A stretch of 64,000 bases of DNA, from positions 10,540 through 74,539 of the forward strand of contig JBAZZC010000003.1 in the NCBI GenBank assembly GCA_041658985.1, written 5' to 3'. This DNA is from Minisyncoccota bacterium (GTDB taxonomy: Bacteria > Patescibacteriota > Minisyncoccia > Phycocordibacterales > DATDWN01). Every line of letters starts with the position of its first letter. Positions within the stretch are counted from its first letter, which is position 1. The position numbers were made by a program, and so were the translations under genes. This document shows, in pieces, positions 2,608-57,821 of this stretch. The notes beneath the pieces are model-generated. The model was given only the letters and a program-made list of their open reading frames with translations. It did not search any database and had not been told where the DNA came from.

Positions 2608-2698
2608 ATACCTATATTATATACTATTGTCTACCTCCGCCAGCACCAAAATTGAGTCTTGACACGAAAAGTTTTTTATGCTAGACTGTCCGTGACAT

Positions 2699-2834
2699 AT
2701 CCGCACACCAACTTTAGTATTGTGTCTTATCGTTGCGGGTATGGTAATTATACTATGTAGTGGTGGGGATAAAAACACTGAGAAGTATACTTATATTAGA
2801 CACGGAGCAACGATACTAAAGTTGGTGTGCGGAT
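2699..2834 (+). repeat. R135 inverted-repeat element, copy A
   Basis: Termini are ATCCGCACACCAACTTTAGTAT ... ATACTAAAGTTGGTGTGCGGAT. Inner modules TGTGTCTTA and CGTTGC are permuted between the arms. Confidence 0.8.
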
Positions 2835-3147
2835 GAATTTGAAAAAAAAGATTACATTAAAAGGTTTTGAGGTTTTTTGGTTCCAAAATATAAATCTCTA
2901 AGCAACTAAGCGTTTACGTTTACGAGTCTTTCTACGAGGACATTCTGGGTATTACTTTATGTAATATTCTGGAATTATCCTTTGTGAAAAACTTAGCTTT
3001 TGGTTTGATTATTGAAAGTGTTGCTTAGAGATTTATGTCTTGGAACTATCGTCCCGCCGACTGGCGGCTTTTTTGTTCCCAAAGATTATCTCTATTTACT
3101 AGTATAGATATGAAACAATTTTCTGCAAGAGTTTTTAGTATTAGAGC

Positions 3148-5069: not shown

Positions 5070-5729
5070 ATGAAAACATTGAGATTGCTCATGGTGTTAG
5101 CGGTCGTCGTTTCGGTGGCGGCCTGCGCCGGCAAGGTGGCTCCGGCCACCATTCCGCTCAGTGAGCGGATCGCCGAACTCAAGGCCCAGGAGGCCGAGAG
5201 GTTGGCGAACGAGACCCCCGAGGACCGGGCCATCAGGGCTCGCGCCGAGGAAATCGAGCGCGAGATGGCGACGAAGAAGGCCCGCGAGGAGGCCAAGAGG
5301 AGTGGCTCGCCGGCCATGCGCAAGGCCATTAAGGAGTTTGAGAAGGCCAAGAAGGCCATCACGAACTCCGGCCTTCAGGGGTGCGACCCGAGTACGGTCG
5401 ACGTCCACCCGGATGTGGCGCCGCGTCGGAACGCTAGTTCAACCGTGAAGGTTCAGGCGTTCAATCAGGGGCAGGTCCCCGTTGATATCTATGAGCCAAA
5501 ACACGGGCTAGTCGTTCGCAACCTGTGCCCCGGAGGGTCACTGACCCTCTTCCGGGCACGTCGGCTCGGGATTGACCCGGACTACATCCAGTTTCGGTAT
5601 GTCGCCAAGGCGATATTGTCGGACGGGCGGATGCTGACGGCTGAGTCACAGCAATACCAACTATCCAAGTACGACTGGTCGTCCGGTCGAGGGCGACAGG
5701 AGTACGACTGGTACATCGAGGTTCGATGA
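5070..5729 (+). CDS. Hypothetical secreted lipoprotein, GC-rich (about 62% GC), probably horizontally acquired
   Basis: Signal peptide with a lipobox (LAVVVSVAACAG). A strong promoter and Shine-Dalgarno precede it. The high GC makes the overlapping antisense ORFs artefacts. Confidence 0.6.
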   Translation: MKTLRLLMVLAVVVSVAACAGKVAPATIPLSERIAELKAQEAERLANETPEDRAIRARAEEIEREMATKKAREEAKRSGSPAMRKAIKEFEKAKKAITNSGLQGCDPSTVDVHPDVAPRRNASSTVKVQAFNQGQVPVDIYEPKHGLVVRNLCPGGSLTLFRARRLGIDPDYIQFRYVAKAILSDGRMLTAESQQYQLSKYDWSSGRGRQEYDWYIEVR

Positions 5730-5767: not shown

Positions 5768-5810
5768 CCGGGAGGAGGGGTTCACACCCATCCTCCCAGG
5801 CGGTTTTTTC
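5768..5810 (+). terminator. GC-rich hairpin plus T-run terminator after the lipoprotein gene
   Basis: GGGAGGAGGGG ttcaca CCCATCCTCCC followed by GGCGGTTTTTTC. Confidence 0.55.
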
Positions 5811-5925
5811 ATCCAGGCACCAACTAAACGAGTTGAGCTCGTTTTTTCAATTTTTATTTTTGTTATTCGATGAACAGAATTGGCTAGAAGTAATACCGTG
5901 ATCTCGTTTAGTTGGTGCCTGGATG
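5810..5925 (+). repeat. Divergent R135-family element with perfect 25-bp terminal inverted repeats and an internal terminator-like hairpin
   Basis: CATCCAGGCACCAACTAAACGAGAT and its exact reverse complement ATCTCGTTTAGTTGGTGCCTGGATG. The interior has AACGAG-ttgag-CTCGTT followed by TTTTTT. The arm consensus resembles copy A (ATCC..CAC.CAACT). Confidence 0.6.
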
Positions 5926-5932
5926 AATATAA

Positions 5933-6066
5933 ATCCGCACACTAATTTTGCCATCGTTCTATTTTTTAAAACAAAACCAATACCATTTTTATTTTCTTAC
6001 TCAACTTCACACAAGTTAATATATTTGATTTAGAACTAAAAATAATGGCAAATTTAGTGTGCGGAT
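5933..6066 (+). repeat. R135 inverted-repeat element, copy B
   Basis: ATCCGCACACTAATTTTGCCAT ... ATGGCAAATTTAGTGTGCGGAT. It ends 22 nt before the tsaE start codon. Confidence 0.8.
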
Positions 6067-6088
6067 AAAATTATGCTAATATGTCTTT

Positions 6089-6523
6089 ATGAAATTTGTT
6101 TCAGAAAATTTAGAACAAACCCAAAAAATCGCAAATGATTTTGTCTCTACACTTTTATCAAATCCTGATAGGGCGACGGTTGTTGGTTTATACGGAAATC
6201 TTGGTGCAGGAAAAACCACATTTACTCAGTGTATAGCCAAAGCTTTTGGTGTGATTGATACAGTAACAAGTCCGACTTTTGTCCTGGAAAAGATTTATGA
6301 ACTAACCGACCAAAAGTTTACCCACTTAATTCATATAGATGCATATAGAATAGAAAAATCCAGTGAGCTTTTACATCTTGGTTGGAATGACTTAATTTCT
6401 GACCCAAACAACATAGTTCTTATTGAATGGCCAGAGAGGGTAGCGGACATTATGCCAGAGCATATAAAAATAAATCTTAGTCATATAACAGAAAATAGTC
6501 GGGAAATTGAGATTTTGGAATAA
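6089..6523 (+). CDS. tsaE: tRNA threonylcarbamoyladenosine biosynthesis protein TsaE
   Basis: P-loop motif YGNLGAGKTTF; the ~140 aa YjeE-family length fits TsaE. Confidence 0.8.
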   Translation: MKFVSENLEQTQKIANDFVSTLLSNPDRATVVGLYGNLGAGKTTFTQCIAKAFGVIDTVTSPTFVLEKIYELTDQKFTHLIHIDAYRIEKSSELLHLGWNDLISDPNNIVLIEWPERVADIMPEHIKINLSHITENSREIEILE

Positions 6524-6531
6524 TGGTATAA
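6522..6531 (+). promoter_or_regulatory. Extended -10 element (TGGTATAAT) placing a transcription start at the first nucleotides of R135 copy C
   Basis: TG at 6524-6525 and TATAAT at 6527-6532, about 7 nt upstream of the element start at 6535. Confidence 0.35.
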
Positions 6532-6534
6532 TTC

Positions 6535-6669
6535 ATCCGCACACTAAATTTGGCATTATCTCATAGTTGCTATACATGTGGTTATGTCAAATTTAATAAT
6601 CATGTTTAAATATAAGTATGCATCTAGAATTTGAGATAATAGCAACGATGCCAAAATTAGTGTGCGGAT
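6535..6669 (+). repeat. R135 inverted-repeat element, copy C
   Basis: ATCCGCACACTAAATTTGGCAT ... ATGCCAAAATTAGTGTGCGGAT. It ends 3 nt before the polA ATG. Confidence 0.8.
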
Positions 6670-6672
6670 AAA

Positions 6673-9024
6673 ATGGCCAAACCTAAAAGCAAAAAAACAC
6701 TGGTACTTCTTGATGTGCATGCTATTTTGCATCGTGCCTATCACGCCCTTCCGGAGTTTGAATCAAGTAAAGGTGAGCCGACGGGAGCTCTTTATGGGCT
6801 TTGCACCATGCTTATCAAGCTGGTAAAAGATTTTAATCCAGACTACATTATTGCTTGTTATGATTTGCCAGAGCCGACCTTACGACACGAAGCATATGGA
6901 GAATATAAGGCTGGTCGTAAAAAAGCTGACGATAATTTAGTAAAGCAGTTGGAGAGGTCAAAGGACGTTTTCAAGGCCATGAATGTGCCGATGTATTCGT
7001 CCCCAGGATTTGAGGCAGACGATATGCTTGGCACCATTGTTGAGAGCTTAAAAAATAACAAAGATATAGATATTGTTATTGCTTCTGGAGATATGGACAC
7101 CATGCAACTTATAAATGGTGATAGGGTGCGGGTTTACACTTTAAAGAAGGGAATAAAGGACACCATTATTTATAACGAGAAAGCAGTGATGGAAAGATGG
7201 GGCTTTGCTCCAAAACTTTTAACCGACTACAAGGGGTTGAGGGGCGACCCGTCGGATAACATAATTGGTATTGTGGGTATTGGGGAAAAAACAGCAGAAG
7301 AATTAATTCAAAAATTTGGTTCGATAGAAAATATATATAAAGAAATTAAAAATCCAAAATCTAAAATTCACAAAGAAGTTAGACCGAGGGTTTTAGAACT
7401 ACTTAAAACGGGAGAGGAAGAAGCTTTGTTTAGCAAAATGCTGGCTACCATTCGAATTGATGCACCGATTTATTTTACAATGCCCACAAAAATTTGGCGG
7501 GATGATATAGATATGAAAAAAGTTCAAGATTTGTTTTCACAATTTGAATTTAGAATGCTGGGGCAGAAATTTGCCGAGAGTCTATCTCTGGACATGCCAG
7601 AAAGAGCAGAAATAATGGCTAATCCTAAGGACGTATTTGAAGTTGGACTATTGCTCTGGGTAGTGGATTCAAACAAAACAAATTCTACGTTAGATGATAT
7701 TTTGTCGTATACCAGAAGCGACAATCTATCTGATGCTCGGAAGGTTTTGGAGAAGACAATAAAAGACCAAGACCTATCTTTTGTTGTAGAAAAAATAGAA
7801 AAGCCACTTATGCCAATTGTTGAGACAATGAAAGAGGTTGGTATAAAAATAGACACCGAAAGACTAAAAATTTTATCAAAGAAATACCACACAGAATTAT
7901 CGTCACTTGAGAAAAAAATATGGAAAATTGTCGGTGAGGAATTTAATATTAATTCACCAAAACAATTAGGTGAGATGCTTTTTGTTAAAATGGGGCTTAA
8001 AGTAAAAAACCAAAAGAAAACAGCTAGTGGTGGATTTTCTACAAAGGAATCAGAGTTGGAAAAATTAAAGGAAGAGTATCCGATTGCTGGATTAATCCTG
8101 GAGTATCGTAAATTAGCAAAACTTCTTGGCACTTATATAGATACCATGCCAACCCAAGTAGATAAAGGTGATAGGTTACATGCTAATTTTTTACAAGCTG
8201 GGACAACCACTGGCAGAATGGCAAGTCAGGACCCGAATTTGCAAAACATTCCAAATAAAACAGAGCTTGGTCGAGAAATTCGTAAATCGTTTATTGCCGA
8301 AAAAGGCTGGAAACTTATTTCGTTTGATTATTCCCAGATAGAGCTTCGTATTGCTGCTTTCTTGTCGGGGGATAAGAAACTAATTGAGATTTTTAAAACA
8401 GGCCAGGATGTCCACACTGCTGTGGCTTGCGAAGTTTTCGGAGTCAAACCAGAAGAGGTAACAAAGGAGATGAGAATAAAAGCAAAAACCATAAATTTTG
8501 GTGTGATGTATGGAATGGGTGTAACTGCTCTACAGAAAAATATTAAAACAAACAGAGAGGAGGCCCAGGAATTTTTGAATGGATATTTTAATAAATTTTC
8601 TGGACTAGCTGAATATCTAGAAAAAGTAAAAAGGGAAACGGCCCAAAAGGGCTTTACCTCGACATTTTTTGGTCGCAGGAGATATTTTCCTGAAATCAAT
8701 TCCAGACTACCTTTTATGAAGGCCCAAGCAGAAAGAATGGCAGTCAATGCGCCGATACAGGGGACAGAGGCAGACATAATCAAAATGGCTATGATAGAAA
8801 TTGATAGATTTATAAAAAGTAAGAATTTAGAAAAGAACGTCCAATTGCTTTTGCAGGTTCATGATGAGTTGGTATACGAAGCAAAAGAAAATATAGTTAA
8901 TTCAATAACTCCAGAAATAAAAGTAATAATGGAAAATATAATTGACCCAAAAAAAATACACGGAATAGTTTGTGTAGCGAATAGCTCCTTTGGAGACAAT
9001 TGGGCAGAAATGATATCAGTATAA
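6673..9024 (+). CDS. polA: DNA polymerase I (5'-3' exonuclease plus polymerase domains; 3'-5' exonuclease region reduced)
   Basis: N-terminal FEN-like domain, a helix-hairpin-helix, and polymerase motifs A (DYSQIELR), B (RIKAKTINFGVMYG) and C (QVHDELV). 783 aa. Confidence 0.9.
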   Translation: MAKPKSKKTLVLLDVHAILHRAYHALPEFESSKGEPTGALYGLCTMLIKLVKDFNPDYIIACYDLPEPTLRHEAYGEYKAGRKKADDNLVKQLERSKDVFKAMNVPMYSSPGFEADDMLGTIVESLKNNKDIDIVIASGDMDTMQLINGDRVRVYTLKKGIKDTIIYNEKAVMERWGFAPKLLTDYKGLRGDPSDNIIGIVGIGEKTAEELIQKFGSIENIYKEIKNPKSKIHKEVRPRVLELLKTGEEEALFSKMLATIRIDAPIYFTMPTKIWRDDIDMKKVQDLFSQFEFRMLGQKFAESLSLDMPERAEIMANPKDVFEVGLLLWVVDSNKTNSTLDDILSYTRSDNLSDARKVLEKTIKDQDLSFVVEKIEKPLMPIVETMKEVGIKIDTERLKILSKKYHTELSSLEKKIWKIVGEEFNINSPKQLGEMLFVKMGLKVKNQKKTASGGFSTKESELEKLKEEYPIAGLILEYRKLAKLLGTYIDTMPTQVDKGDRLHANFLQAGTTTGRMASQDPNLQNIPNKTELGREIRKSFIAEKGWKLISFDYSQIELRIAAFLSGDKKLIEIFKTGQDVHTAVACEVFGVKPEEVTKEMRIKAKTINFGVMYGMGVTALQKNIKTNREEAQEFLNGYFNKFSGLAEYLEKVKRETAQKGFTSTFFGRRRYFPEINSRLPFMKAQAERMAVNAPIQGTEADIIKMAMIEIDRFIKSKNLEKNVQLLLQVHDELVYEAKENIVNSITPEIKVIMENIIDPKKIHGIVCVANSSFGDNWAEMISV

Positions 9025-9103
9025 TGTATAACGTATTATGTATAAAACACTGACCCAGATTCCATACGTTATACTTTATACATAATACTTTATACATACT
9101 CAT

Positions 9104-10386: not shown

Positions 10387-10660
10387 CAATTAAAAAATCT
10401 CTGTGGTGGGGATTTTTTAATTGTGCGCCCGGAGCAAGAGTGTGGGGCACTCTTGCGTCAGGAATCGAACAGATTCACGGTTTACGCTCGCAGAAGCGAG
10501 TGTTGTGAATCTGCGTTTTAAATTCTGATGAGTGACGACGAATCAGAATTTAAAAAGATTCCGTCCAGAAAAGGTGTACTGACCATGTAATGGTCGATAT
10601 TCCTGCCGGGCGCACAAACCAAAAAATCTCCACTGCTGGAGATTTTTTGCACTAGTGTGC
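10387..10660. repeat. tRNA-Lys 3'-end duplications and hairpin repeats (scars of site-specific integration)
   Basis: A direct copy of the tRNA 3' end (CGATATTCCTGCCGGGCGCACAA) lies at 10595-10617. An inverted, interrupted copy lies near 10425-10475. Hairpins AAAAAATCTCC..GGAGATTTTTT are shared with repeats at 18566-18703 and 23259-23396. Confidence 0.55.
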
Positions 10661-10775: not shown

Positions 10776-12185
10776 TTACCCCAAGCGCTTGAGAAAAGCT
10801 GTTACTTCGGGCGGTAGCGGGAGCGATGGCGAAAAGACCGCTTCGTATTTGTAGTGACGGTAGGCGCCGAACACGCTCTGGAGTTCTTCTGGCGTGTGCG
10901 TCTCGTCTTGAACGACCTTCTTAATCGCCCCCAGAAGATGAGGGAAATCGACAGCAAGAGAGAAAAGCTTGTGAAGCACATCCACTTGCAGTCGATGTGG
11001 CAGACGAATTGGAGACCGGTAGTGATATGTCGAGAAGACACTCTCAACACTGTCAATCAAACCCTCCCGCAAACTCTGCTCCCCGAGCCGAGTCCCTGGA
11101 TAGGGGGTGAAAATTGAAACCCAGGCAAAATCAGGTTTGAGTTGAGTGTTGAACTCAACCGTCTCGTAGTCGTTGTCCAAGGTTGTGCCGGGAAAACCCA
11201 AAATATTCTGGGTAAAAACGGCAATACCCTGGGCGCCAAGCAACTTCCGCGCCAGAATCATCTGGGCTTTGCTAATCCGCCTGCCCAAAAGTTCTGTGCG
11301 CACCTTGTCATTACCAGCTTCTACACCCATGAAAATCTTCGCGCAACCTCCTTGCTTTAAGAGTGTAGCAACTTCTTCGTTTACCAAATCGGCCCGCAGG
11401 GAACAGATAAACGGCATGCCGATCTCAGCACGATACCTCGACACAAAGGTGCGAAGTCGAGGTCGATCAAGTACGAAAATGTCGTCGTGAAAATTGATGG
11501 TTTTCAGATTATGGTGCATCTTCAGTTCCACCAGCTCCGCCATCAAATTTTCCGCCGAGCGAGTTCTGACAAACTTCCCCTTGCTCATATAAAGAGTGCG
11601 CAAGGGTCTATTGGCGCAGTACGAACAGTCGTAGGGGCAACCTCGACTTGAAAAGACGCAATATTCCCCGTCAGCGGGAACGCGCTGAAAGAGATCTCGG
11701 TCTGGGAAAGGCAACGCATCGAGGTTCGCCACTAGTGGGCGCACTTCATTGCGATACACGACACCCTTCTCCTTGATCCAGAAATTGCGTATTTCTCTGA
11801 TCGATGAGTGGGTTTTGATCGCTTGGGCCAGCTCCACAACCGCCTCATCTCCCTCTCCGATTCCAATGACGTCCACCGCCTCATGTGTCAGAATCTCTGG
11901 CACAAGAGTCGGATGAAAACCACCAAAAACAGAGAGAAATGGGTGCCGCCGCTTGAGCCGACTGCACAATTCCAAACAATGCGTCTGTTCGCCCGTGATG
12001 ACGCTAAACATCACCACATCCGGAACGAATTCTTCGAATATTCGTTCGGTATCCTCTTGGCTGGACAGAGAGCCGCGGACGACAAACCCATGTTGCTTGA
12101 GTGCTGACGAGAGATACATCGCCCCAAGCGGTTCATCGACCAAAGCAGGACTAACGATCAAAATCCGCGGGTAATCTTTGTCCAT
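10776..12185 (-). CDS. B12-binding domain radical SAM protein (GC-rich, about 55% GC)
   Basis: CxxxCxxC motif (CPYDCSYCAN), an N-terminal cobalamin-binding-like domain, a GGAGG Shine-Dalgarno, and foreign base composition. Confidence 0.75.
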   Translation of the reverse strand: MDKDYPRILIVSPALVDEPLGAMYLSSALKQHGFVVRGSLSSQEDTERIFEEFVPDVVMFSVITGEQTHCLELCSRLKRRHPFLSVFGGFHPTLVPEILTHEAVDVIGIGEGDEAVVELAQAIKTHSSIREIRNFWIKEKGVVYRNEVRPLVANLDALPFPDRDLFQRVPADGEYCVFSSRGCPYDCSYCANRPLRTLYMSKGKFVRTRSAENLMAELVELKMHHNLKTINFHDDIFVLDRPRLRTFVSRYRAEIGMPFICSLRADLVNEEVATLLKQGGCAKIFMGVEAGNDKVRTELLGRRISKAQMILARKLLGAQGIAVFTQNILGFPGTTLDNDYETVEFNTQLKPDFAWVSIFTPYPGTRLGEQSLREGLIDSVESVFSTYHYRSPIRLPHRLQVDVLHKLFSLAVDFPHLLGAIKKVVQDETHTPEELQSVFGAYRHYKYEAVFSPSLPLPPEVTAFLKRLG

Positions 12186-14487: not shown

Positions 14488-14583
14488 CTAATTTCTAATT
14501 ACTAATTAATCTAAATAATGACCAAACCCCAATAATCAGCTAGTATTTCTTTAGAAATTAGAAATTAGGTTAATTAGAAATTT
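14488..14583. repeat. Cargo-less pair of four-helix-bundle-cassette-type inverted repeats (MITE-like)
   Basis: CTAATTTCTAATTACTAATTAATCTAAATAATGACC, a 27-bp spacer, then TTAGAAATTAGAAATTAGGTTAATTAGAAATTT. Confidence 0.5.
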
Positions 14584-14612: not shown

Positions 14613-15095
14613 ATGAAAAAATCTAACCTTCAGATTTCTGTCTTACTGCACAATATTCGTAGTACTCACAATGTTGGGTCTATTTTTCGGACCTCTGATG
14701 CTCTGGGTATCACCAAGATTTATTTATCTGGATTTTCTCCTACACCGGTAGATAAATTTGGAAAACCAAGAAAAGATATCACAAAAGTAGCCTTGGGTGG
14801 AGAAAAAAATATTTCTTGGGAGTATTCAAAAAATCCAGAAAAAATAATTAAAAAACTAAAAAAATCTAACTATCAAATAATTGGTTTGGAACAAACAAAA
14901 AATTCACAGGATTATAAAAAGGTAAAAATTAAATCCCCGACTTTATTTATAGTAGGGAATGAGGTGGAAGGGGTTGAAAGAAAGATTTTATCTCTTTGTG
15001 ATGTTCTAGTTGAAATACCAATGAAAGGTAAAAAGGAGTCACTAAACGTTTCTGTGGCTTTCGGGGTGGCTCTCTTTAGAATACTTAATATTTGA
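14613..15095 (+). CDS. SpoU/TrmH family RNA 2'-O-methyltransferase
   Basis: SPOUT motifs HNVGSIFRTSDALG and IVGNEVEGV. Confidence 0.75.
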   Translation: MKKSNLQISVLLHNIRSTHNVGSIFRTSDALGITKIYLSGFSPTPVDKFGKPRKDITKVALGGEKNISWEYSKNPEKIIKKLKKSNYQIIGLEQTKNSQDYKKVKIKSPTLFIVGNEVEGVERKILSLCDVLVEIPMKGKKESLNVSVAFGVALFRILNI

Positions 15096-15972
15096 GTGTA
15101 TCCACCACTTTTCCAAAATTATCGTATAGAATAATAACCTCACGTTTGTCTTTCCATAAACTCTCACCACGTTTTAGATATACTCTCCACTCTTTCAAAT
15201 AAAAATCCTTGTCATTTTTATGAGTGTCTACGCACGAAGAATAGTTTATTTTTTTTGATATAAAGTTATTACACTCAACACCCAAATATTGTGGGGGTGT
15301 TTCCGTTTGGATTCTGCACGTTGGCATTGAATCAATATAGTCAAAACAACGGTCATTGGCTGTTATTTTTGGTATGGAAGAAAGGTCCTCGTCTCTAGGT
15401 GCCGGACAATTGCTGTTTAGGTAAGGAACAAAAGTTTGAAATTGTCCGAGATATCCAGAACATTTGTTGGCTCTAAAACTGCTACCATTTGGAGAAATAC
15501 CGGTAATGAGATATAAAGTATCTCCGCCGATTAGAAATATATTATCTTCTGTGTTCATTACTCCAGCAAAAAATAAGTATGATGCTTTTGGTATTAATAT
15601 TTGATTTTTTGTGTTCAGGCTTTTTAAAATCCAGCCAGTAACGGGTACCGTTCCCGTCGCATTATTGGCCATTTTTATGGTGACATATTCTTGGCTTGGA
15701 TTTGTGGACCTATTTATATATGAAAGTGTTATCACCCCCTTGTACTGACTCTGGGTTTTTTTGTCCTCCTCTATCTGAAGTTGCTTTTTTAAATCATCAA
15801 TCTGATTTTGGGTGTCTATAATTTTTTGTTCAACTGATACCTCTGTCTGTTTTTGGGTTTCATTGCCGGTGGGGGCTGGTTGGGTGACACCGGCGTTTTT
15901 ACTACCACCAAATAAAGCAATGGCCACGATAGCCAGTAGAATTAAAATTCCTGTTGAGTCTTCTTTACTCAT
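15085..15972 (-). CDS. Membrane-anchored secreted protein, possibly with a lamin-tail-like domain
   Basis: N-terminal transmembrane helix, a coiled coil, a NATGTVPVTGWILKS motif, and a Cys-rich C-terminus. Confidence 0.35.
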   Translation of the reverse strand: MSKEDSTGILILLAIVAIALFGGSKNAGVTQPAPTGNETQKQTEVSVEQKIIDTQNQIDDLKKQLQIEEDKKTQSQYKGVITLSYINRSTNPSQEYVTIKMANNATGTVPVTGWILKSLNTKNQILIPKASYLFFAGVMNTEDNIFLIGGDTLYLITGISPNGSSFRANKCSGYLGQFQTFVPYLNSNCPAPRDEDLSSIPKITANDRCFDYIDSMPTCRIQTETPPQYLGVECNNFISKKINYSSCVDTHKNDKDFYLKEWRVYLKRGESLWKDKREVIILYDNFGKVVDTLKY

Positions 15973-16011
15973 ATTTCTCTATTTTACAACAAAATTACCC
16001 AAAATGCTTTA

Positions 16012-16146
16012 CCCGCACACCAATTTTGGCATTGTCTCTATATTGCCACATCAATAATTATATAAAGAACGAGTCATTTTCATCTAAGTAAGGTTGTTTA
16101 ATTATCTTGAGAGACTGGGCAATGATGCCAAATTTGGTGTTCGGGT
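16012..16146 (+). repeat. R135 inverted-repeat element, copy D
   Basis: CCCGCACACCAATTTTGGCAT ... ATGCCAAATTTGGTGTTCGGGT. It ends exactly at the mutM stop codon. Confidence 0.8.
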
Positions 16147-18565: not shown

Positions 18566-18703
18566 GTGGTCAGGAATATTTTGCTCGTCGTCACTCGCAA
18601 AATTTCATGACCCTGACTCAGCTGTTTTTTCTGTTGAAAAAACATGCTTCCGTCCAGCACATAACAATAAAAATCTCCAGCAGTGGAGATTTTTATTGTT
18701 ATG
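18566..18703. repeat. tRNA-flanking hairpin repeat X1
   Basis: About 85% identical to 23259-23396. Contains a 22-bp-stem hairpin GCACATAACAATAAAAATCTCC..GGAGATTTTTATTGTTATGTGC abutting the tRNA 3' end. Confidence 0.7.
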
Positions 18704-18775
18704 TGCTCACGGCAGGAATCGAACCTGCATTTCTCCCTTCGCAGGGGAGTGTCTTATCCATTCAACGACGCGAGC
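18704..18775 (-). tRNA. tRNA-Arg (anticodon GCG as read; the exact anticodon needs checking)
   Basis: Acceptor GCTCGCG/CGTGAGC, anticodon stem CTCCC/GGGAG with loop CTGCGAA, T-arm GCAGGTTCGATTCCTGC. Confidence 0.65.
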
Positions 18776-19462: not shown

Positions 19463-19741
19463 TTATGCTTGGTGTTCTGTCTCTACTGTATATTTTTTTG
19501 CCACAAAATATATGTAGATTATTTCCAAGATACCCAGGGTGTTAACTACAAGCAAAATAATAAACCACCACTTGCTTGATAATCGTGCAGCTTTCCACAA
19601 GGCCCAGCCTTTCCAAGCTAGTGACCAAACGATTAATAATGCTACAACCCAAGGTGCAACTTTTAGAAAAGGCAACATTTCAGGTTGTGTTAGAAAACTT
19701 GTTATTGTTGTTTCCATCCCATTAGAAGTAGGGCTCAGCAA
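19463..19741 (-). CDS. Small hypothetical membrane protein
   Basis: Two transmembrane helices with a Trp-rich segment (WKGWALWKAARLSSKWW). Confidence 0.35.
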   Translation of the reverse strand: MLSPTSNGMETTITSFLTQPEMLPFLKVAPWVVALLIVWSLAWKGWALWKAARLSSKWWFIILLVVNTLGILEIIYIYFVAKKYTVETEHQA

Positions 19742-19893
19742 ACTTTGTTGTTGTGATACCTACTCAAATTAATTTATAAAGATTTATTGCTATCTACAAT
19801 TTCCCGTTAACTTCTAACGGGATAAATAATCATTAATTATATCAAAAATATATTTTCCTAGCTACTAAACGCTAGCTACTATATACTATTCTT

Positions 19894-20277
19894 ATGAAAT
19901 ATCTTGGTATTGATTATGGTTCAAAACGAATTGGCCTGGCGGTTTCTGATGAGGCTGGTAGTTTTGCTTTTCCCTTGAAAGTTTTAAGTAATTCAGAAAA
20001 TCTAATTAAAGAATTGGTTGAAATATGTAGGGAAAACAATGTGGAAGGGGTTGTGGTGGGGGAGTCAAAAGATTATCTTCAAAAAGACAATGAGATTATG
20101 GATGAAATTTTGCCATTTGTTGAGGATTTAAAAAATGTACTTAACCTGCCAATATATATGCACCCAGAATTTTTGACTTCCCAGGAGGCCGAGAGATTGC
20201 AGGGTAAAAACGATATGCATGATGCTAGTGCAGCGGCTCTTATTTTAAAAAGTTATTTGGATTCATCCGCACACTAA
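19894..20277 (+). CDS. ruvX: Putative pre-16S rRNA nuclease / Holliday junction resolvase-like protein YqgF (RuvX)
   Basis: MKYLGIDYGSKRIGLAVSD N-terminus typical of YqgF. Confidence 0.8.
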   Translation: MKYLGIDYGSKRIGLAVSDEAGSFAFPLKVLSNSENLIKELVEICRENNVEGVVVGESKDYLQKDNEIMDEILPFVEDLKNVLNLPIYMHPEFLTSQEAERLQGKNDMHDASAAALILKSYLDSSAH

Positions 20278-20395
20278 GTTTAGCATCGTTGCCATTTTTT
20301 GTGGTTTGGCTAACGTTCAATTTTTTGTAATATCCCGTGTATTATAGTTGTATGTGTTGTGGCAACAAAAATAATGCTAAACTTAGTGTGCGGAT
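20265..20395 (+). repeat. R135 inverted-repeat element, copy E
   Basis: ATCCGCACACTAAGTTTAGCAT ... ATGCTAAACTTAGTGTGCGGAT. The left arm overlaps the ruvX stop codon. Confidence 0.8.
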
Positions 20396-20419: not shown

Positions 20420-20776
20420 ATGGCAGTTTCAATTGATGATTTTAAAAAACTAGAAATAAAAGTTGGCCAGATTCTTAGCGTGGAAAAAATTGAAAACACA
20501 GACAAACTCTTAAAGTTGTCTGTCGATTTTAACGAAGGAACTTTTCGTCAAATAATTTCAGGGATTTCGTCATATTTTTCTGACCCACAGGTTTTGGTGG
20601 GGAAAAAGTGTGCTTTTGCAACCAATCTAGAGCCTAGAGTTATAATGGGTCTTGAAAGTCAGGGTATGATTTTGGCGGTAAGTGGGCTGAAACAGTCAAA
20701 AGATGATTTAGAAGATAGTTTTTTCTCTCTTTTAGAGGTGGAGAAAGATGTTCCGGCAGGAAGTGCTGTTAAGTGA
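20420..20776 (+). CDS. tRNA-binding protein (CsaA/Trbp111 EMAP-like domain, free-standing)
   Basis: OB-fold tRNA-binding motif (KLEIKVGQILSVEKIENTDKLLKLSVDFNEG) like the MetRS C-terminal domain. Confidence 0.7.
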   Translation: MAVSIDDFKKLEIKVGQILSVEKIENTDKLLKLSVDFNEGTFRQIISGISSYFSDPQVLVGKKCAFATNLEPRVIMGLESQGMILAVSGLKQSKDDLEDSFFSLLEVEKDVPAGSAVK

Positions 20777-23258: not shown

Positions 23259-23396
23259 GTGGTCAGGAATATTTTTGTTTCCGTCAAAACAAAAATTTCA
23301 CGACCCTGACTCGGCTGTTTTTTCTACTGAAAAAACATGCCTTCGTCTAGCACATAACAACAAAAATCTCCAGCAGTGGAGATTTTTGTTGTTATG
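23259..23396. repeat. tRNA-flanking hairpin repeat X2
   Basis: About 85% identical to 18566-18703. Same hairpin abutting the 3' end of tRNA-Arg(TCT). Confidence 0.7.
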
Positions 23397-23468
23397 TGCT
23401 CTCGGTTGGAATCGAACCAACATCAAAGCCTTAGAAGAGCTCTACTCTATCCATTGAGCTACGAGAGC
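23397..23468 (-). tRNA. tRNA-Arg (anticodon TCT)
   Basis: Acceptor GCTCTCG/CGAGAGC, anticodon loop CTTCTAA, T-arm GTTGGTTCGATTCCAAC. Confidence 0.75.
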
Positions 23469-29067: not shown

Positions 29068-29178
29068 TGAATCCCGTACGAAATTTATGTTATTTGTCTT
29101 ACGGGATAAATATTAGTAAATAATAGTTAATAAAAAATAAAGGTGAATAAATAGCTTTTATTTCGTACGGGATGAATT
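29068..29178. promoter_or_regulatory. Three ATCCCGTACGGGAT-type (CGTACG-core) sites between SHOCT and csoR
   Basis: TGAATCCCGTACGAAAT (29068-29084), TTACGGGAT (29099-29107), and ATTTCGTACGGGATGAATT (29160-29178, overlapping the csoR ATG). The outer sites are mutual inverted repeats. Confidence 0.5.
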
Positions 29179-36067: not shown

Positions 36068-36203
36068 CATCCGCACACTAACATTAGTATTGTGTCTTAC
36101 GTTGCTCTACTGGGTATTAAACAGAGTAATGAAGGATAAAATGATGAAGTAAACAAATCAAGATTAGACACAATTGCAACGATACCAATGTTAGTGTGCG
36201 GAT
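36068..36203 (+). repeat. R135 inverted-repeat element, copy F
   Basis: ATCCGCACACTAACATTAGTAT ... ATACCAATGTTAGTGTGCGGAT. The interior is related to copy A. It ends 8 nt before the next ATG. Confidence 0.8.
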
Positions 36204-36211
36204 AAAATTTT

Positions 36212-37066
36212 ATGAACCAATTATTTGATACCTCTAATTTAGATAATCCACAAAAAAGACGATTTCTCAATGCCCTAATAGCCACCTTTATTTTATTGGC
36301 TATCTTTCTTGGTGTTAAGATTATTAATTCTATAAAGGAATACTCTTATATTGGTAGTGGAGTTTATCCGACAAACACCATTATGGTTTCTGGAACAGGT
36401 GAAGTTTTTGCTGTCCCAGATATTGCCTCTTTCTCTTTCTCTGTTAACGAGGTGGGTAAGACAGTAAAAGAGGCTCAGGATAAAGCAAGTACAAAGATGA
36501 ACTCAATTCTTGAGGCACTGAAAGGTATGGCCATTGAAGATAAAGATATTAAAACAACAGGATATAATTCTGGTCCAAAGTATGAATGGAAACAGGGTGT
36601 TTGTCCTCCAGTACCAATAGGAGAAGGAGTTGCTGGGGTGGATTATTACTGTTCACAAGGGAAGAATACCTTAGTTGGATATGAAGTTAATCAATCAATT
36701 ACTGTAAAGATTAGGAAAACAGATGAGGCTGGAAAAGCCTTAACTAAGGTTGGAGAACTCGGAGCAGAAGATATAAGTAGCTTATCGTTTGTGGTTGACG
36801 ACTTGGACGCTGTTAAAGCCGAAGCAAGAGATAAAGCCATCGTAAATGCAAAAGAAAAAGCAAAAAAACTTTCAAAATCACTTGGTATTAAATTGGTCAA
36901 AATAGTAAGTTATAGTGATTCAGGAGATTATTCTCCAATGTATTATGATGCTATGGAGGTGAAAGGTATGGGGGGTGGAATGGTTTCTTCTTCTGTTGCT
37001 CCACAAATTCCTGTTGGAGAGAACACAATCGTGTCAAACGTGTCCATCACCTACGAAGTAAAGTAG
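36212..37066 (+). CDS. SIMPL domain (DUF541) secreted protein
   Basis: N-terminal transmembrane/signal helix. The domain organisation fits the 26 kDa periplasmic immunogenic protein family. Confidence 0.55.
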   Translation: MNQLFDTSNLDNPQKRRFLNALIATFILLAIFLGVKIINSIKEYSYIGSGVYPTNTIMVSGTGEVFAVPDIASFSFSVNEVGKTVKEAQDKASTKMNSILEALKGMAIEDKDIKTTGYNSGPKYEWKQGVCPPVPIGEGVAGVDYYCSQGKNTLVGYEVNQSITVKIRKTDEAGKALTKVGELGAEDISSLSFVVDDLDAVKAEARDKAIVNAKEKAKKLSKSLGIKLVKIVSYSDSGDYSPMYYDAMEVKGMGGGMVSSSVAPQIPVGENTIVSNVSITYEVK

Positions 37067-48100: not shown

Positions 48101-48604
48101 ACAGAAAGCATGGAGGATTTTTTAGACAGGGAACTTATTGTTCAAATGCAAAAAGTCAGGGAGGTGGTTACCCAAGCCTTAGATTTACGTCAGAAAGCTG
48201 GGTACAGTGTTAGACAACCTCTGCCATCTCTTGTTGTGTCGCAAAATTTTTCTAAAGAACTATTAGATATTATTGCTGATGAGGTCAATGTAAAAGAAAT
48301 AAAGGTCTTGGAAGGAAGTGAGGTAAGATTGGACACAACCTTAACCGAAGAATTGAAAAACGAAGGAATTGCTCGTAGTGTTATTCGTGGTATCCAGGAT
48401 GTAAGAAAAAATGAAGGTCTTAATCCAGGCGAGAGAATAAAGCTGATTATTTGTGCAGATGAAAAAATAAAATCTGTGATTGTTTCTTTTGAGATTTTAA
48501 TCAAATCTCCAACACAGGTGGTGGAGATAATATACTCAAACGAAAAACAAACTCACGCCATTTCTTTGGGTTCCGGCGAGATGACGGTAACAGTATCTAG
48601 ATAA
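45179..48604 (+). CDS. ileS: Isoleucine--tRNA ligase with an inserted histidine-phosphatase (PGAM-like) domain
   Basis: PHQGT (a HIGH variant), WTTTPWTLPGN, and KMSKS. An internal segment of ~190 aa carries the LLRHGESEGN and IIGHGGPL catalytic motifs of the histidine phosphatase superfamily. Start moved to MEKEKIEK, downstream of the T-box. Confidence 0.85.
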   Translation: MEKEKIEKSEVALKEEKILEFWEKSEIFKKTLEKEAPKGEFVFYDGPPFATGLPHQGTLLGSIAKDLIPRYKTMRGYSVRRRWGWDCHGLPIENLVEKKLGLKHKKDIEEMGIEKFNEECRSQVLTYVHDWKVYIDRVARWVDFEGSYKTMDSSYTESIWWALKQMNDKGLLYEGRKVLLYCPRCETPLSKAEIAMDNSYKDITEEAVTIKFKIKNPEKHKLPQNTYLLAWTTTPWTLPGNVALAVGNDIEYQVMKKGQETYVVSTQVWKQGILGEFGNLAIGDVRKGADLVGLEYEPLYEIPVVKNSGKKAWYVTSADFVNTEEGTGIVHTAVIYGEDDYQLGLKVDLPMVPLLLPNGEFNNEAPEFIRGMYVKKAERYIKEDLEKRDLLFSKTMNTHSYPHCYRCETPLIYNALSSWFINIQKIKKQVIDLNENINWVPDHLKHGRFLDIAQNAPDWTISRNRYWASPLPIWKDDKGKYIVIGSISELKDYIGRRNNYFLLRHGESEGNAKGVISCKKDGKDSLTSLGREESLSSVKELKNKKIDIIISSPFVRTRETAEIIAEEMGIPKEEIIYDDLLGEISCEKYDGELWTGFNFRKKEEGVETPRQVLSRTMKVMYGLDKKYESKNILIIGHGGPLRIIKLASSGLAEEDIMKHYYDDPPRNAKTIDCDFVALPHNGAYEIDLHRPYIDEVVLHDKDGSILKRIPEVIDCWVESGSMPFAEYNYPYSNKEEFEKRAPGDFVAEYIAQTRTWFYYMHVISTALFGRESFKNVLTTGNIQASDGSKMSKSKSNYTDPLLLMNKYGADALRYYMMTSVVMQAEDLNFKNDDVKEVNQRMLNILRNVLSFYEMYKTDFTGIPSKNNVLDKWICSRLAVLHKEVTEGLEKYDTIRSGRPIRLFIEDLSTWYLRRSRDRFKSENLEERKEVSECTAFILVELAKIMAPFTPYIAEEIYQGVKGKNHKESVHLENWTESMEDFLDRELIVQMQKVREVVTQALDLRQKAGYSVRQPLPSLVVSQNFSKELLDIIADEVNVKEIKVLEGSEVRLDTTLTEELKNEGIARSVIRGIQDVRKNEGLNPGERIKLIICADEKIKSVIVSFEILIKSPTQVVEIIYSNEKQTHAISLGSGEMTVTVSR

Positions 48605-48712
48605 TTTCTAATTTTCAATTCTCAATTTTCAAACAATTTCCAATTATAAAATTTCTGAATTAGTAGATTAATTTATTTTTTAGACATTAAAAATTAGAAA
48701 TTGAAAATTTTT
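48603..48712. repeat. AT-rich inverted-repeat pair related to the four-helix-bundle cassette IRs, between ileS and recO
   Basis: TAATTTCTAATTTTCAATTCTCAATTTTC ... AAAAATTAGAAATTGAAAATTTTT. Shares the TAATTTCTAATT start with 551-593. Confidence 0.45.
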
Positions 48713-52661: not shown

Positions 52662-52793
52662 ATCCGAACACTAACTTTGGCATCGTTGCACATCTCCACA
52701 CGTAGATGTAAACGATAGTCTAGATGTAGATTCATATTTTGTATTAATACTCACTTAGCAACAAGGAGATAATGCCAAAGTTAGTGTGCGGAT
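52662..52793 (+). repeat. R135 inverted-repeat element, copy G
   Basis: ATCCGAACACTAACTTTGGCAT ... ATGCCAAAGTTAGTGTGCGGAT. It begins 1 nt after the glyQS stop codon. Confidence 0.8.
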
Positions 52794-52963
52794 AAGTTTT
52801 TACAAAACAAGATTTAGGTGGTACTATTGGCCTATGGATCCCGTTAGAAATCCCTTGGTTGATTTGTAAAAAATGGATTTTAACGAGAAACCTAATTATT
52901 AAGATATATTAACTAATTAAATGCGGAAAGGCTTTAGTAAAAGGCTTTCCTATTTCTAACGGG

Positions 52964-54034
52964 ATGGATAAAGAGCAAGTCATTAGTATTAGTCTTGGTA
53001 CAATTATTAAGACAGTATTTGTTATTTTGTTTTTTGCACTCCTTTTTTACTTGAAGGATTTAGTTCTTGTGTTACTTTTGTCTATAGTCATTGCTTCTGC
53101 TGTAGAACCAGGGACACAATGGCTTGTTCGGCGCAGAATACCCCGTCTTTTTTCTGTGATTTTCATATATGTAGCCATTGCTATATGTTTTGCTGGTGTT
53201 ATCTTTTTTCTTTTAATACCACTACTTTCTGAATCAAGTGATCTTTTAAGAAATTTTCCAACCTATTTTAAGGCCGGAAGTATTTCTAATTCATTAAATA
53301 ATAACAACTTTTTTTCCTCACAATCAATAAACAGTTTTACGAACAGTCTAAATTTAGAACAAATTACTGAACAGATTAATAATATTATAAATGGTATATA
53401 TTCAAATACGTTCAATACCGTTGCTGTCTTTTTTGGAGGAGTCTTATCTTTTCTTTTAACGGTAATTTTGTCTTTTTATCTAGCCATGGAGGAAGACGGT
53501 GTTGGTAAATTTTTGAAAGCCATCTCTCCCATTAAACACGAAAAATACATAACTTCTCTTTGGAAAAGGTCTCAAAGAAAAATAGGTCTTTGGATGCAAG
53601 GACAGCTTATTTTGGCAATTATTATTGGAACACTTGTTTATCTAGGCCTACTAATCATTAATGTTCCCAATGCCTTACTTCTGGCCACCCTGGCCGCTGT
53701 TTTTGAGATTATTCCACTTTTTGGACCAATTCTTGCCTCAATACCGGCCATTGCAATTGCTTTTATGACTGGAGGAGTTTCTTTGGCTGCCCTTGTTGCT
53801 GGCTTGTATATTATTATTCACCAATTTGAGAATCAACTTATTTATCCACTGGTTGTCAAAAAAGTTGTTGGTGTTTCACCGATAGTTTCCATAATGGCGC
53901 TGGCTATTGGATGGCAATTAGCCGGATTTGTCGGTGTTATTCTGTCGGTTCCATTAGCTTCGGCCATTATTGAATTTTTTGATGATATTGAAAAGGATAA
54001 AATTGAGAAATTCGAAAAGATGAATGCTCAGTAA
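52964..54034 (+). CDS. AI-2E family transporter (PerM/UPF0118)
   Basis: Eight transmembrane helices with the FEIIPLFGPILASIPAI motif. Confidence 0.75.
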   Translation: MDKEQVISISLGTIIKTVFVILFFALLFYLKDLVLVLLLSIVIASAVEPGTQWLVRRRIPRLFSVIFIYVAIAICFAGVIFFLLIPLLSESSDLLRNFPTYFKAGSISNSLNNNNFFSSQSINSFTNSLNLEQITEQINNIINGIYSNTFNTVAVFFGGVLSFLLTVILSFYLAMEEDGVGKFLKAISPIKHEKYITSLWKRSQRKIGLWMQGQLILAIIIGTLVYLGLLIINVPNALLLATLAAVFEIIPLFGPILASIPAIAIAFMTGGVSLAALVAGLYIIIHQFENQLIYPLVVKKVVGVSPIVSIMALAIGWQLAGFVGVILSVPLASAIIEFFDDIEKDKIEKFEKMNAQ

Positions 54035-57585: not shown

Positions 57586-57740
57586 CTCTGGTCTTTTTGT
57601 CCGATTTCAGCGTTGGAATTTCAAAAATTCTCGTCACCGTACGTTTAGTACGGCTCCTCGCATTTTTTCATTCCGCCTTGAACTCGAACAAAAATCCTCA
57701 GAGTTTCATTTCTCGACCTATCAAAACTTGCGTGGTCGTA

Positions 57741-57795
57741 TCTTTTTTGGAAACACAAACCCAGACGCTGGTCTGGGTTTGTGTTTCCAAAAAAG
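57741..57795. terminator. Bidirectional rho-independent terminator between convergent rpsR and efp
   Basis: 18-bp stem GGAAACACAAACCCAGAC gctg GTCTGGGTTTGTGTTTCC, flanked by TTTTTT on one side and AAAAAA on the other. Confidence 0.8.
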
Positions 57796-57821
57796 ATACG
57801 ACGAGCTAAAGTTTTGAAAAA

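Follow-up and report, generated by a model that had tools for sequence, protein, structure and literature searches.

What are the hairpin repeats that bracket tsaE and stop just short of the polA start codon in a Patescibacteria genome, and what brought them there? We address this question for a stretch of 64,000 nucleotides (positions 10,540 to 74,539 of contig JBAZZC010000003.1, assembly GCA_041658985.1), here called the window, which is assigned to a Candidatus Paceibacterota metagenome-assembled genome (MAG). This 64-kb window holds eight elements of about 135 bp, which we call R135, and one divergent element, all of them intergenic. An earlier note on this DNA had proposed that the elements carry promoter-like signals and may act as transcribed leaders, or as insulator or terminator-promoter modules. 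Comparison with relatives leads us to a different answer: R135 elements are probably non-autonomous, REPIN/MITE-like mobile DNA hairpins derived from an Ssn-type element that consists of a nuclease and its hairpin repeat.

Structure and conservation of the hairpin elements

A repeat family with terminal inverted repeats had been described here before, and every structural statement made about it holds. The terminus TTAGTGTGCGGATAAA occurs 13 times in the window when up to 3 mismatches are allowed (0.8 expected), and hairpins of the form ATCC...GGAT with a stem of at least 10 bp number 11, compared with 0-4 in shuffles. R135 copies are 131-136 bp long, have 22-bp termini and contain no open reading frame (ORF). 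They bracket tsaE (6089-6523, plus strand, supported by Pfam) as had been reported: copy B (5933-6066; 134 bp; a 22-bp stem with one mismatch) ends 22 nt before the tsaE ATG, and copy C (6535-6669; 135 bp) starts 11 nt past the tsaE stop codon and ends 3 nt before the ATG of polA (6673-9024, plus strand, also supported by Pfam), between the polA -10 box and the start codon. Upstream of copy B lies the divergent element (5808-5927; core ATCCAGGCACC...GGTGCCTGGAT at 5811-5924). Its inverted repeat extends to 25 nt, with perfect arms at 5808-5832 and 5903-5927, and it contains the small terminator-like hairpin and T-run that had been claimed for it (5826-5844, plus strand).

A scan of one genome per species for the R135 element recovered 65 loci, mostly from Patescibacteria MAGs, and these together with the window supply a set of 82 copies (loci outside the window are given L numbers). 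The stem is 22 bp long: positions 1-13 read ATCCGCACACYAA, the 9 bp at positions 14-22 are variable yet paired, and position 23 is a conserved mismatch. Stem length is exactly 22 bp in the divergent element and in every R135 copy of the hairpin census, which leaves out the copy with an ACCC terminus at 16011. In an alignment of 33 copies, 98.2% of the outer-stem cells are paired and 9 of the 10 variable pairs have changed on both sides. The same alignment has 70 compensatory cells, against 17.4 +/- 5.6 in shuffles, and pairing falls to 31-40% when the stem partner is slid. By this comparison the hairpin is shown to have been kept through compensatory changes. The copies also fold far better than their own shuffles (z -4.3 to -8.3).

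The interior of the element is variable and carries asymmetric motifs (CGTTGCA ... GCAAC-A-GGGAGAC or AAAACAC), whose complementary partners are interleaved (a, b ... a', b'). Interior orientation is uncorrelated with the orientation of the flanks or the downstream gene (15 versus 19), and the mismatches at stem positions 14-22 are without bias, with 15 G.T and 13 A.C. The random orientation and the equality of the two mismatches favour a constraint acting on DNA over a strand-specific role of RNA. An Rfam scan, read at the gathering score and at E up to 10, brought only tRNAs to threshold, the R135 elements giving just sub-threshold matches to generic long-hairpin miRNA models.

Copies in the window are 68-79% identical overall, and within one other MAG identity reaches 92%. 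In the pieces examined of MAG SMAG_U8111 and its population there are about 27 copies, along with two copies that bear the nuclease gene described below. Collapsed mini-hairpins with the R135 terminus exist as well (ATCCGCACGTGCGGAT in L016, and 31-76-nt forms in L001 and L032); a mini-hairpin form of the terminus measures 16-31 nt (ATCCGCAC/GTGCGGAT).

Insertion beside host promoters

Copy C is missing from two very close relatives, L183 and L184, whose PolA falls into one 90% cluster with that of the window (identity at least 90%). Their tsaE-polA junction reads TGGTATAATTGAATAAATGGCT, where the window has TGGTATAATTC[135 bp]AAAATGGCC. An extended -10 box, TGGTATAAT, stands just upstream of copy C in the window (6524-6532, plus strand), as the earlier note had stated, and at the empty site of the close relatives the same box lies 7 nt before the polA ATG. 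The site is likewise empty in five more distant relatives (L066, L068, L069, L072 and L074), which keep TGnTATAAT 6-7 nt before the polA ATG. The presence of the box at empty sites indicates that the promoter is host DNA and that copy C is an insertion. Judged from these alignments, polA normally has a promoter of the leaderless type, and the insertion of copy C has separated its -10 box from the start codon.

In L067 (788-960) and L070 (1750-1830), the stretch from the polA -10 box to the ATG is also interrupted, but by another kind of inverted-repeat insertion, which is very AT-rich. Similar TAATTTCTAATT / AATTAGAAATTAG repeats are found in the window at 557-997, 14488-14568 and 48603-48709. 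The gap between -10 box and ATG may be a general landing site.

Upstream of tsaE the picture is similar. The copy B site is empty in L066 and L068; L066 has TTTTTTAATATAAAAAATG, the window ...AATATAA[134 bp]AAAAT. Copy B is an exact insertion of 134 bp at AATATAA^AAAAT, with no base duplicated and none lost. Over the wider region L066 reads TTTTTTAATATAAAAAATGTGATAG and the window TTTTTTC[divergent element]GAATATAA[copy B]AAAATTATGCTAATATG. The divergent element is also absent from L066 and L068, and has an ortholog in L070. The host promoter of tsaE, an extended -10 box of the leaderless type (TGCTAATAT; 6074-6082, plus strand), lies 6 nt before its ATG. At these orthologous sites the comparison shows the elements to be insertions, present in some genomes and absent from others, without target duplication. 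Candidate target-site duplications were rejected: measured by their longest common substring, the two flanks agree no better than shuffled pairings do, and repeats in the ATG region of L004, L031 and L055 are not significant as duplications. An exact search with the TsaE protein for strain-level polymorphism returned the source contig alone.

These alignments change what can be made of the elements. The earlier note had them carrying promoter-like signals, but the polA -10 box already stands at the empty site in five relatives, two of them near-identical, and the box of tsaE lies downstream of copy B; we found no evidence of promoters or ribosome-binding sites carried by the elements. The suggestion that GGATAA at the right terminus is a ribosome-binding determinant fails because the AAA after GGAT is host sequence, as the empty copy B site (AATATAA^AAAAT) has it, and so no such determinant is delivered. 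Nor can the terminator proposal be upheld, since no T-run follows the R135 hairpin and it is thus not an intrinsic terminator module. The leader proposal survives in part: copy C lies downstream of the extended -10 box and should therefore be transcribed as the polA 5' leader, and both it and the copy preceding the SIMPL gene should, from their positions, be transcribed as 5' hairpin leaders, but a strand-specific function of such RNA is unsupported.

That the native genes lack Shine-Dalgarno (SD) sequences, also claimed earlier, agrees with our counts. An SD-like motif precedes 3 of the 67 ORFs in the window, two of the three being GC-rich genes, and by our own count about half of the 67 have a -10-like hexamer a few nucleotides upstream of the ATG. 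To judge from these starts, the genome uses leaderless, SD-less gene starts.

The flanks of the wider copy set carry a consistent signature. Exactly one end reads GGAT|AAA in 70 of the 82 copies, two ends in 1 and none in 11, where our arithmetic from the end counts gives 40, 16 and 25 for independent ends. In the orientable copies (69-70 of 82), on which the signature was computed, the opposite end has the form (A)AT-W-M|ATCC, and 67 of 69 carry T at -3. Insertion sites are shown by these flanks to have the form (A)AT-W-M ^ AAA. TANNNT falls exactly at -8..-3 in 18 of 69 copies, compared with about 2 at other offsets; in 26% of copies, then, exactly 2 nt separate the end of a -10 hexamer from the element. 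For at least two members of the TAA| class, this TAA serves as stop codon for the upstream gene.

An ORF starts within 15 nt beyond the AAA end in 32 of 70 copies (46%) and almost never at the other ends; about 40% of copies are not near any start. In the window, the AAA end is 3 nt from the polA start, 8 nt from the SIMPL gene at 36212 (copy at 36069-36203) and 24 nt from the gene at 20420 (copy at 20265-20395), previously called csaA-like and here a tRNA-binding-domain gene; Pfam supports both assignments. These are the right termini that had been said to abut start codons, and the abutment does exceed chance, as only 11% of the intergenic T-W-M^AAA sites in the window lie within 15 nt of a start. 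The target hexamer was considered as the sole cause of this proximity and rejected as insufficient. These counts show an excess of sites in the interval that begins with a host -10 box or a stop codon and ends with the next start codon.

Such positions could suggest that the elements are RNA leaders of benefit to the host, in which a 5'-terminal stem stabilises or insulates the mRNA and perhaps supplies GGATAA as a ribosome-binding determinant in an SD-less genome. The proximity to start codons, about four times the expectation from the target motif, fits this explanation, as do the strictly kept 22-bp stem and the -10 box ending 2 nt before the element, from which transcription would begin at the base of the stem. 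We nevertheless consider it quite unlikely. In near-identical relatives that lack the element, polA is expressed from the same promoter, the interior is oriented at random relative to the gene, G.U is not in excess over A.C, the AAA and the -10 box are host sequence, and many copies lie away from any start. Furthermore, the elements match no Rfam family, and the same termini bound a nuclease gene.

Longer elements encode a GIY-YIG nuclease

Elements of about 300 bp with the same termini as R135 enclose an ORF of 88 amino acids (aa) in L042/L147, L155, L164, L036, L054 and L174/L179, the copy in L054 being frameshifted. Both termini surround this ORF in six independent contexts, and the space between them is exactly filled: the ORF starts 4 nt past the left terminus and stops at a TAG that is part of the invariant right terminus (GTTAGTGTGCGGAT). 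It always runs in the sense of the host gene, whose ATG comes after GGAT|AAA(N), and two of these elements stand 2 nt past a -10-like box (GGTATAATTC| and GAGATAATTA|). The dialect of the terminus varies with the divergence of the protein (ATCCGCACAC, CCCGCACACC and GCCCACACAC). On this comparison, the nuclease-bearing elements are shown to share termini, flank signature and insertion context with R135. A more distant homolog of the nuclease, in L014, has an unrelated 20-bp inverted repeat.

The 88-aa protein matches the Pfam family GIY-YIG (PF01541) over residues 1-71 (E 1.6e-14) and is a single-domain protein consisting of the catalytic domain. It has 871 homologs; among those listed most are 88 aa long, and the few that are named belong mostly to Paceibacterota or Patescibacteria. 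The nearest solved structures by sequence are UPF0213 (1zg2, 1ywl), followed by SLX1. A tblastn search of the protein from the candidate phyla radiation (CPR) against plasmids matched rhizobial and Azospirillum GIY-YIG genes, and hhalign pairs it with the SRM-flanked Azospirillum GIY-YIG protein at 98% probability (E 1.9e-13).

In two species, a nuclease-bearing element directly follows a tRNA gene and precedes a gene for an aminotransferase of class IV (L174 and L179/L180, about 1100-1200). The left terminus of this element, GCCCACACACTAAC, overlaps the 3' end of the tRNA, and in L179 a short R135-like element sits just upstream of the same tRNA. Another contig, L159, combines parts of two nuclease loci: the flank upstream of the CorA/CtpB one is followed by the flank downstream of the DUF1003 one. 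Either two element copies have recombined here, or the assembly is chimeric at the repeat.

Comparison with known systems

Ssn nucleases are single-domain GIY-YIG enzymes that bind a hairpin repeat, NTS or SRM, and cut only single-stranded DNA (ssDNA) next to it (PMC11893778). The repeat flanks their genes and numbers hundreds of dispersed copies (Chenal et al. 2025, Nat Commun, PMC11893778). The authors noted the insertion-sequence-like architecture of the modules and left mobility as a hypothesis (PMC11893778). Our elements resemble this system in several respects. The protein is a single-domain GIY-YIG of about 90 aa, here 88 aa, and its gene is bounded on both sides by a hairpin-forming repeat that is also dispersed extragenically: R135 is present in eight copies and one divergent copy in 64 kb, and in the roughly 27 copies of MAG SMAG_U8111 and its population. 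The stem begins ATCC.../...GGAT and is oriented by a 5' TCAT flank, and the dialects of nuclease and repeat co-vary. The Azospirillum SRM, CGTCATCCCCGCGAAGGCGGGGATCCAG, resembles the R135 terminus TTCATCCGCAC...GTGCGGAT, its stem ATCCCCGC/GCGGGGAT with 5' TCAT corresponding to TTCATCCGCAC/GTGCGGAT in R135. Four hairpins flank the Azospirillum gene; all of them fit the published SRM pattern and three are exactly CGTCATCCCCGCGAAGGCGGGGATCCAG, and this hairpin repeat is closely like the NTS consensus. R135 itself resembles the SRM consensus at the terminus only (TCATCC..GC / GC..GGAT). Ssn proteins belong to the CDD clade cd10448 (GIY-YIG_unchar_3), for which the hhalign match to the Azospirillum protein serves as a proxy here.

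The differences are equally instructive. The host belongs to the Patescibacteria, which are without mention in PMC11893778. R135 half-sites are 90-260 bp apart, and the element interior or the nuclease gene forms the loop on a fixed 22-bp stem. Mobility, hypothesised for Ssn modules, is shown here by empty and filled orthologous sites, and the preference for the gap between -10 box and ATG of leaderless genes is new.

In Neisseria, the repeats of the NTS/SsnA system bracket genes and are reported to restrict their replacement by natural transformation (PMC11893778). The elements studied here could likewise belong to a domesticated nuclease and repeat system that acts on incoming or replicating ssDNA, with copies kept for the control of genome dynamics and not by selfish spread. 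This published function, the homology to SRM-flanked Ssn-type nucleases, the extragenic repeats bracketing genes such as tsaE, and a PilB-like type II/IV secretion ATPase encoded in the window (identified by Pfam) are consistent with such a role. However, three separate insertions that differ in age account for the bracketing of tsaE, no clustering around particular classes of gene is apparent, presence and absence between near-identical strains looks like ongoing mobility, and the competence of the organism is not established. We therefore regard domestication as very unlikely.

In its logic the nearest analogue is REPIN/RAYT. REPINs are extragenic units of about 100-140 bp in many copies, with two inverted conserved arms, a variable loop and a conserved hairpin, and they have a single associated gene flanked by the repeat. 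RAYT is an HUH Y1 (IS200-like) transposase, whereas the gene here encodes a GIY-YIG nuclease; no RAYT or HUH gene bounded by the repeat was found, every case seen being GIY-YIG, in searches that did not include a systematic whole-genome HUH search. Correia elements of Neisseria (CREE/NEMIS) are also similar, being about 100-150 bp long, gene-adjacent and co-transcribed, with inverted termini and long RNA hairpins, and they also affect neighbouring promoters. Their insertion duplicates a TA target, and promoter boxes arise from their own termini; in contrast, R135 causes no duplication and the -10 box pre-exists in the host.

The 'peel and paste' elements of the IS200/IS605 family, together with the PATE elements derived from them, insert without target duplication at a point preceded on its 5' side by a conserved short sequence, and they require DNA hairpins and probably ssDNA. 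Unlike R135, they have separate subterminal hairpins at each end in place of true terminal inverted repeats, and an HUH transposase that forms covalent intermediates. Miniature inverted-repeat transposable elements (MITEs) share with R135 the terminal inverted repeats, small size and lack of an ORF. Those derived from DDE elements differ in their target-site duplication: R135 flanks are no more alike than the control, and copy B has no duplication. A partner with the same termini does exist, but it encodes the GIY-YIG nuclease, which belongs to no recognised transposase class. The literature on MITEs in Patescibacteria, on GIY-YIG proteins with inverted repeats and on leaderless CPR genes yielded nothing specific besides the Ssn paper.

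The least probable explanation is that R135 is an ordinary MITE or REP moved by a conventional transposase encoded elsewhere (DDE, or HUH/RAYT of the IS200/IS605 type), with the GIY-YIG gene as cargo: terminal inverted repeats, small size, lack of an ORF and intergenic location would suit it, HUH ssDNA transposition typically involves recognition of a hairpin and leaves no target duplication, and genome searches for transposases were not exhaustive, but the absence of duplication is contrary to a DDE enzyme, and GIY-YIG is the only gene found within the termini, in six independent contexts and several dialects, and with an exact fit.

Proposed origin and movement

We thus favour descent of R135 from an Ssn-type nuclease and hairpin-repeat element. 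The family would be Patescibacteria-wide, with a full-length form of about 300 bp in which 22-bp inverted termini surround an 88-aa GIY-YIG gene of the Ssn/UPF0213/SLX1-like branch. The nuclease would recognise a folded single-stranded hairpin at its ATCC/GGAT base, as Ssn does with NTS/SRM hairpins, and would mobilise full-length and short elements in trans. Short elements would have no designed host function; depending on position they would become passive 5' hairpin leaders (polA and SIMPL), and some would lie just upstream of a promoter (tsaE). The bracketing of tsaE would reflect three independent insertions at three A/T-rich target sites.

Several points weigh against this reading. A GIY-YIG gene was looked for within the window and none was found, so that mobilisation in trans is here an assumption. 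The SRM consensus, HGTCWYN(0-2)YYVSBRHN(0-5)WNVSBRGN(0-2)RNCYNB, has 0 matches in the window, although the same regular expression does recover the SRMs that surround the Azospirillum and Sinorhizobium genes. In our elements the gene lies within a single long-range inverted repeat, whereas separate local hairpins on each side were published for Ssn. Between the copy C site and the empty allele there is a net difference of 2 nt, and insertion is thus not always exact. The enrichment near start codons exceeds the expectation from the target hexamer, and selection or a host-level role may contribute to it. To our knowledge GIY-YIG nucleases are hydrolytic, with no strand-joining step known, which leaves the completion of excision and insertion unexplained. 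Two further lines were set aside: R135 as an internal deletion of the nuclease element, for which the alignment is unconvincing beyond the termini and about 10 nt, and L159 as a second site of an identical nuclease gene, which may be an assembly chimera and is not used as evidence.

A bolder claim, which we think unlikely, is that these elements form a class of prokaryotic transposable elements not recognised before, which targets open complexes and encodes no enzyme other than the 88-aa Ssn-like GIY-YIG nuclease. The folded single-stranded hairpin would then be excised and inserted without an HUH-type covalent intermediate or target duplication, its targets lying where the open complex of a leaderless promoter makes DNA transiently single-stranded. 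Such targeting would explain insertion 2 nt past the -10 hexamer and a few nucleotides before the ATG.

Other features of the window

Three further R135 copies stand in other settings. Copy A (2699-2834) lies downstream of a plus-strand TTGACA-17-TAGACT (2659-2687), located 11 nt before it as the earlier note had described. The copy at 16011-16146 has the terminus dialect ACCCGCACACC / GGTGTTCGGGT and is, on the minus strand, 38 nt upstream of the start of the gene at 15085-15972. The copy at 52662-52793 carries the ATCCGAACAC variant. Between two minus-strand genes, the region 2659-3075 could give an independent plus-strand non-coding transcript composed of the TTGACA-17-TAGACT promoter, copy A, a second, unrelated hairpin (arms 2880-2906 and 3020-3046) and a terminator (GC hairpin and T-run, about 3053-3075).

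Other hairpin families with ATCCCG... termini and 14-bp stems are also present. One element of a second terminus family lies at 19716-19823 (ATCCCATTAGAAG...CTTCTAACGGGAT, 14-bp stem). An element of the ATCCCGTACGAAAT family (29071-29173) and one of the ATCCCGTTAGAAAT family (52838-52965) each end in a GGGATG that overlaps an ATG, that of the gene at 29172 and that of the AI-2E transporter gene at 52964, respectively. The ATCCCG... termini (ATCCCGTTAGAAAT and ATCCCGTACGAAAT) are closer still than R135 to the Neisseria dRS3/NTS core ATTCCCGCG, and a similar CCCGTTAGAG hairpin is found in another MAG (L001, about 7010-7060).

Near-identical, perfect palindromes of 52 bp at 18656-18707 and 23349-23400 (AGCACATAACAAyAAAAATCTCCA-GCAG-TGGAGATTTTTrTTGTTATGTGCT) each adjoin the 3' end of a minus-strand tRNA-Arg gene. 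Two convergent ORFs are separated by a hairpin at 57735-57802 (GTCGTATCTTTTTTGGAAACACAAACCCAGAC / GTCTGGGTTTGTGTTTCCAAAAAAGATACGAC) whose 32-bp stem is perfect and whose loop measures 4 nt. Downstream of polA, L183 (2779-3078) and L184 (2523-2822) have a minus-strand ORF of 99 aa without a Pfam match between polA and the DNA polymerase III delta gene; in the same place the window (9025-9103) has instead 80 nt of inverted repeats rich in TATAC/GTATA.

Two genes stand out by composition in this genome of 35% GC, at 5070-5729 (55% GC) and 10776-12185 (about 50% GC), and they have the only clear GGAGG SD sequences in the window. One encodes a B12-binding radical SAM protein, the other a protein of 219 aa without a Pfam match. 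The gene for the 219-aa protein is kept upstream of tsaE in several relatives (L067, L068 and L070) and is GC-rich there too, so it is not a recent arrival in the lineage.

Significance

The description of Ssn nucleases with their hairpin repeats dates only from 2025, when their likeness to insertion sequences was a hypothesis. This locus and its relatives provide direct comparative evidence that a nuclease and hairpin module is mobile, the first such evidence that we have found: near-identical strains have filled and empty orthologous sites, insertion is precise and duplicates no target, and short derivatives are more numerous than the form with the gene. All of it is drawn from Patescibacteria, whose genomes are tiny and in which repeat families are hardly described. 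For annotation, the family accounts for many odd intergenic hairpins and small "GIY-YIG nuclease family protein" genes in CPR MAGs, and it flags both as likely points of assembly chimerism. For the organism, a hairpin leader of 135 nt comes to separate the -10 box from the start codon in essential leaderless genes such as polA, and SD-independent initiation beside a strong 5' stem becomes testable. If open complexes were indeed targeted, an element could capture a host promoter for its own expression.

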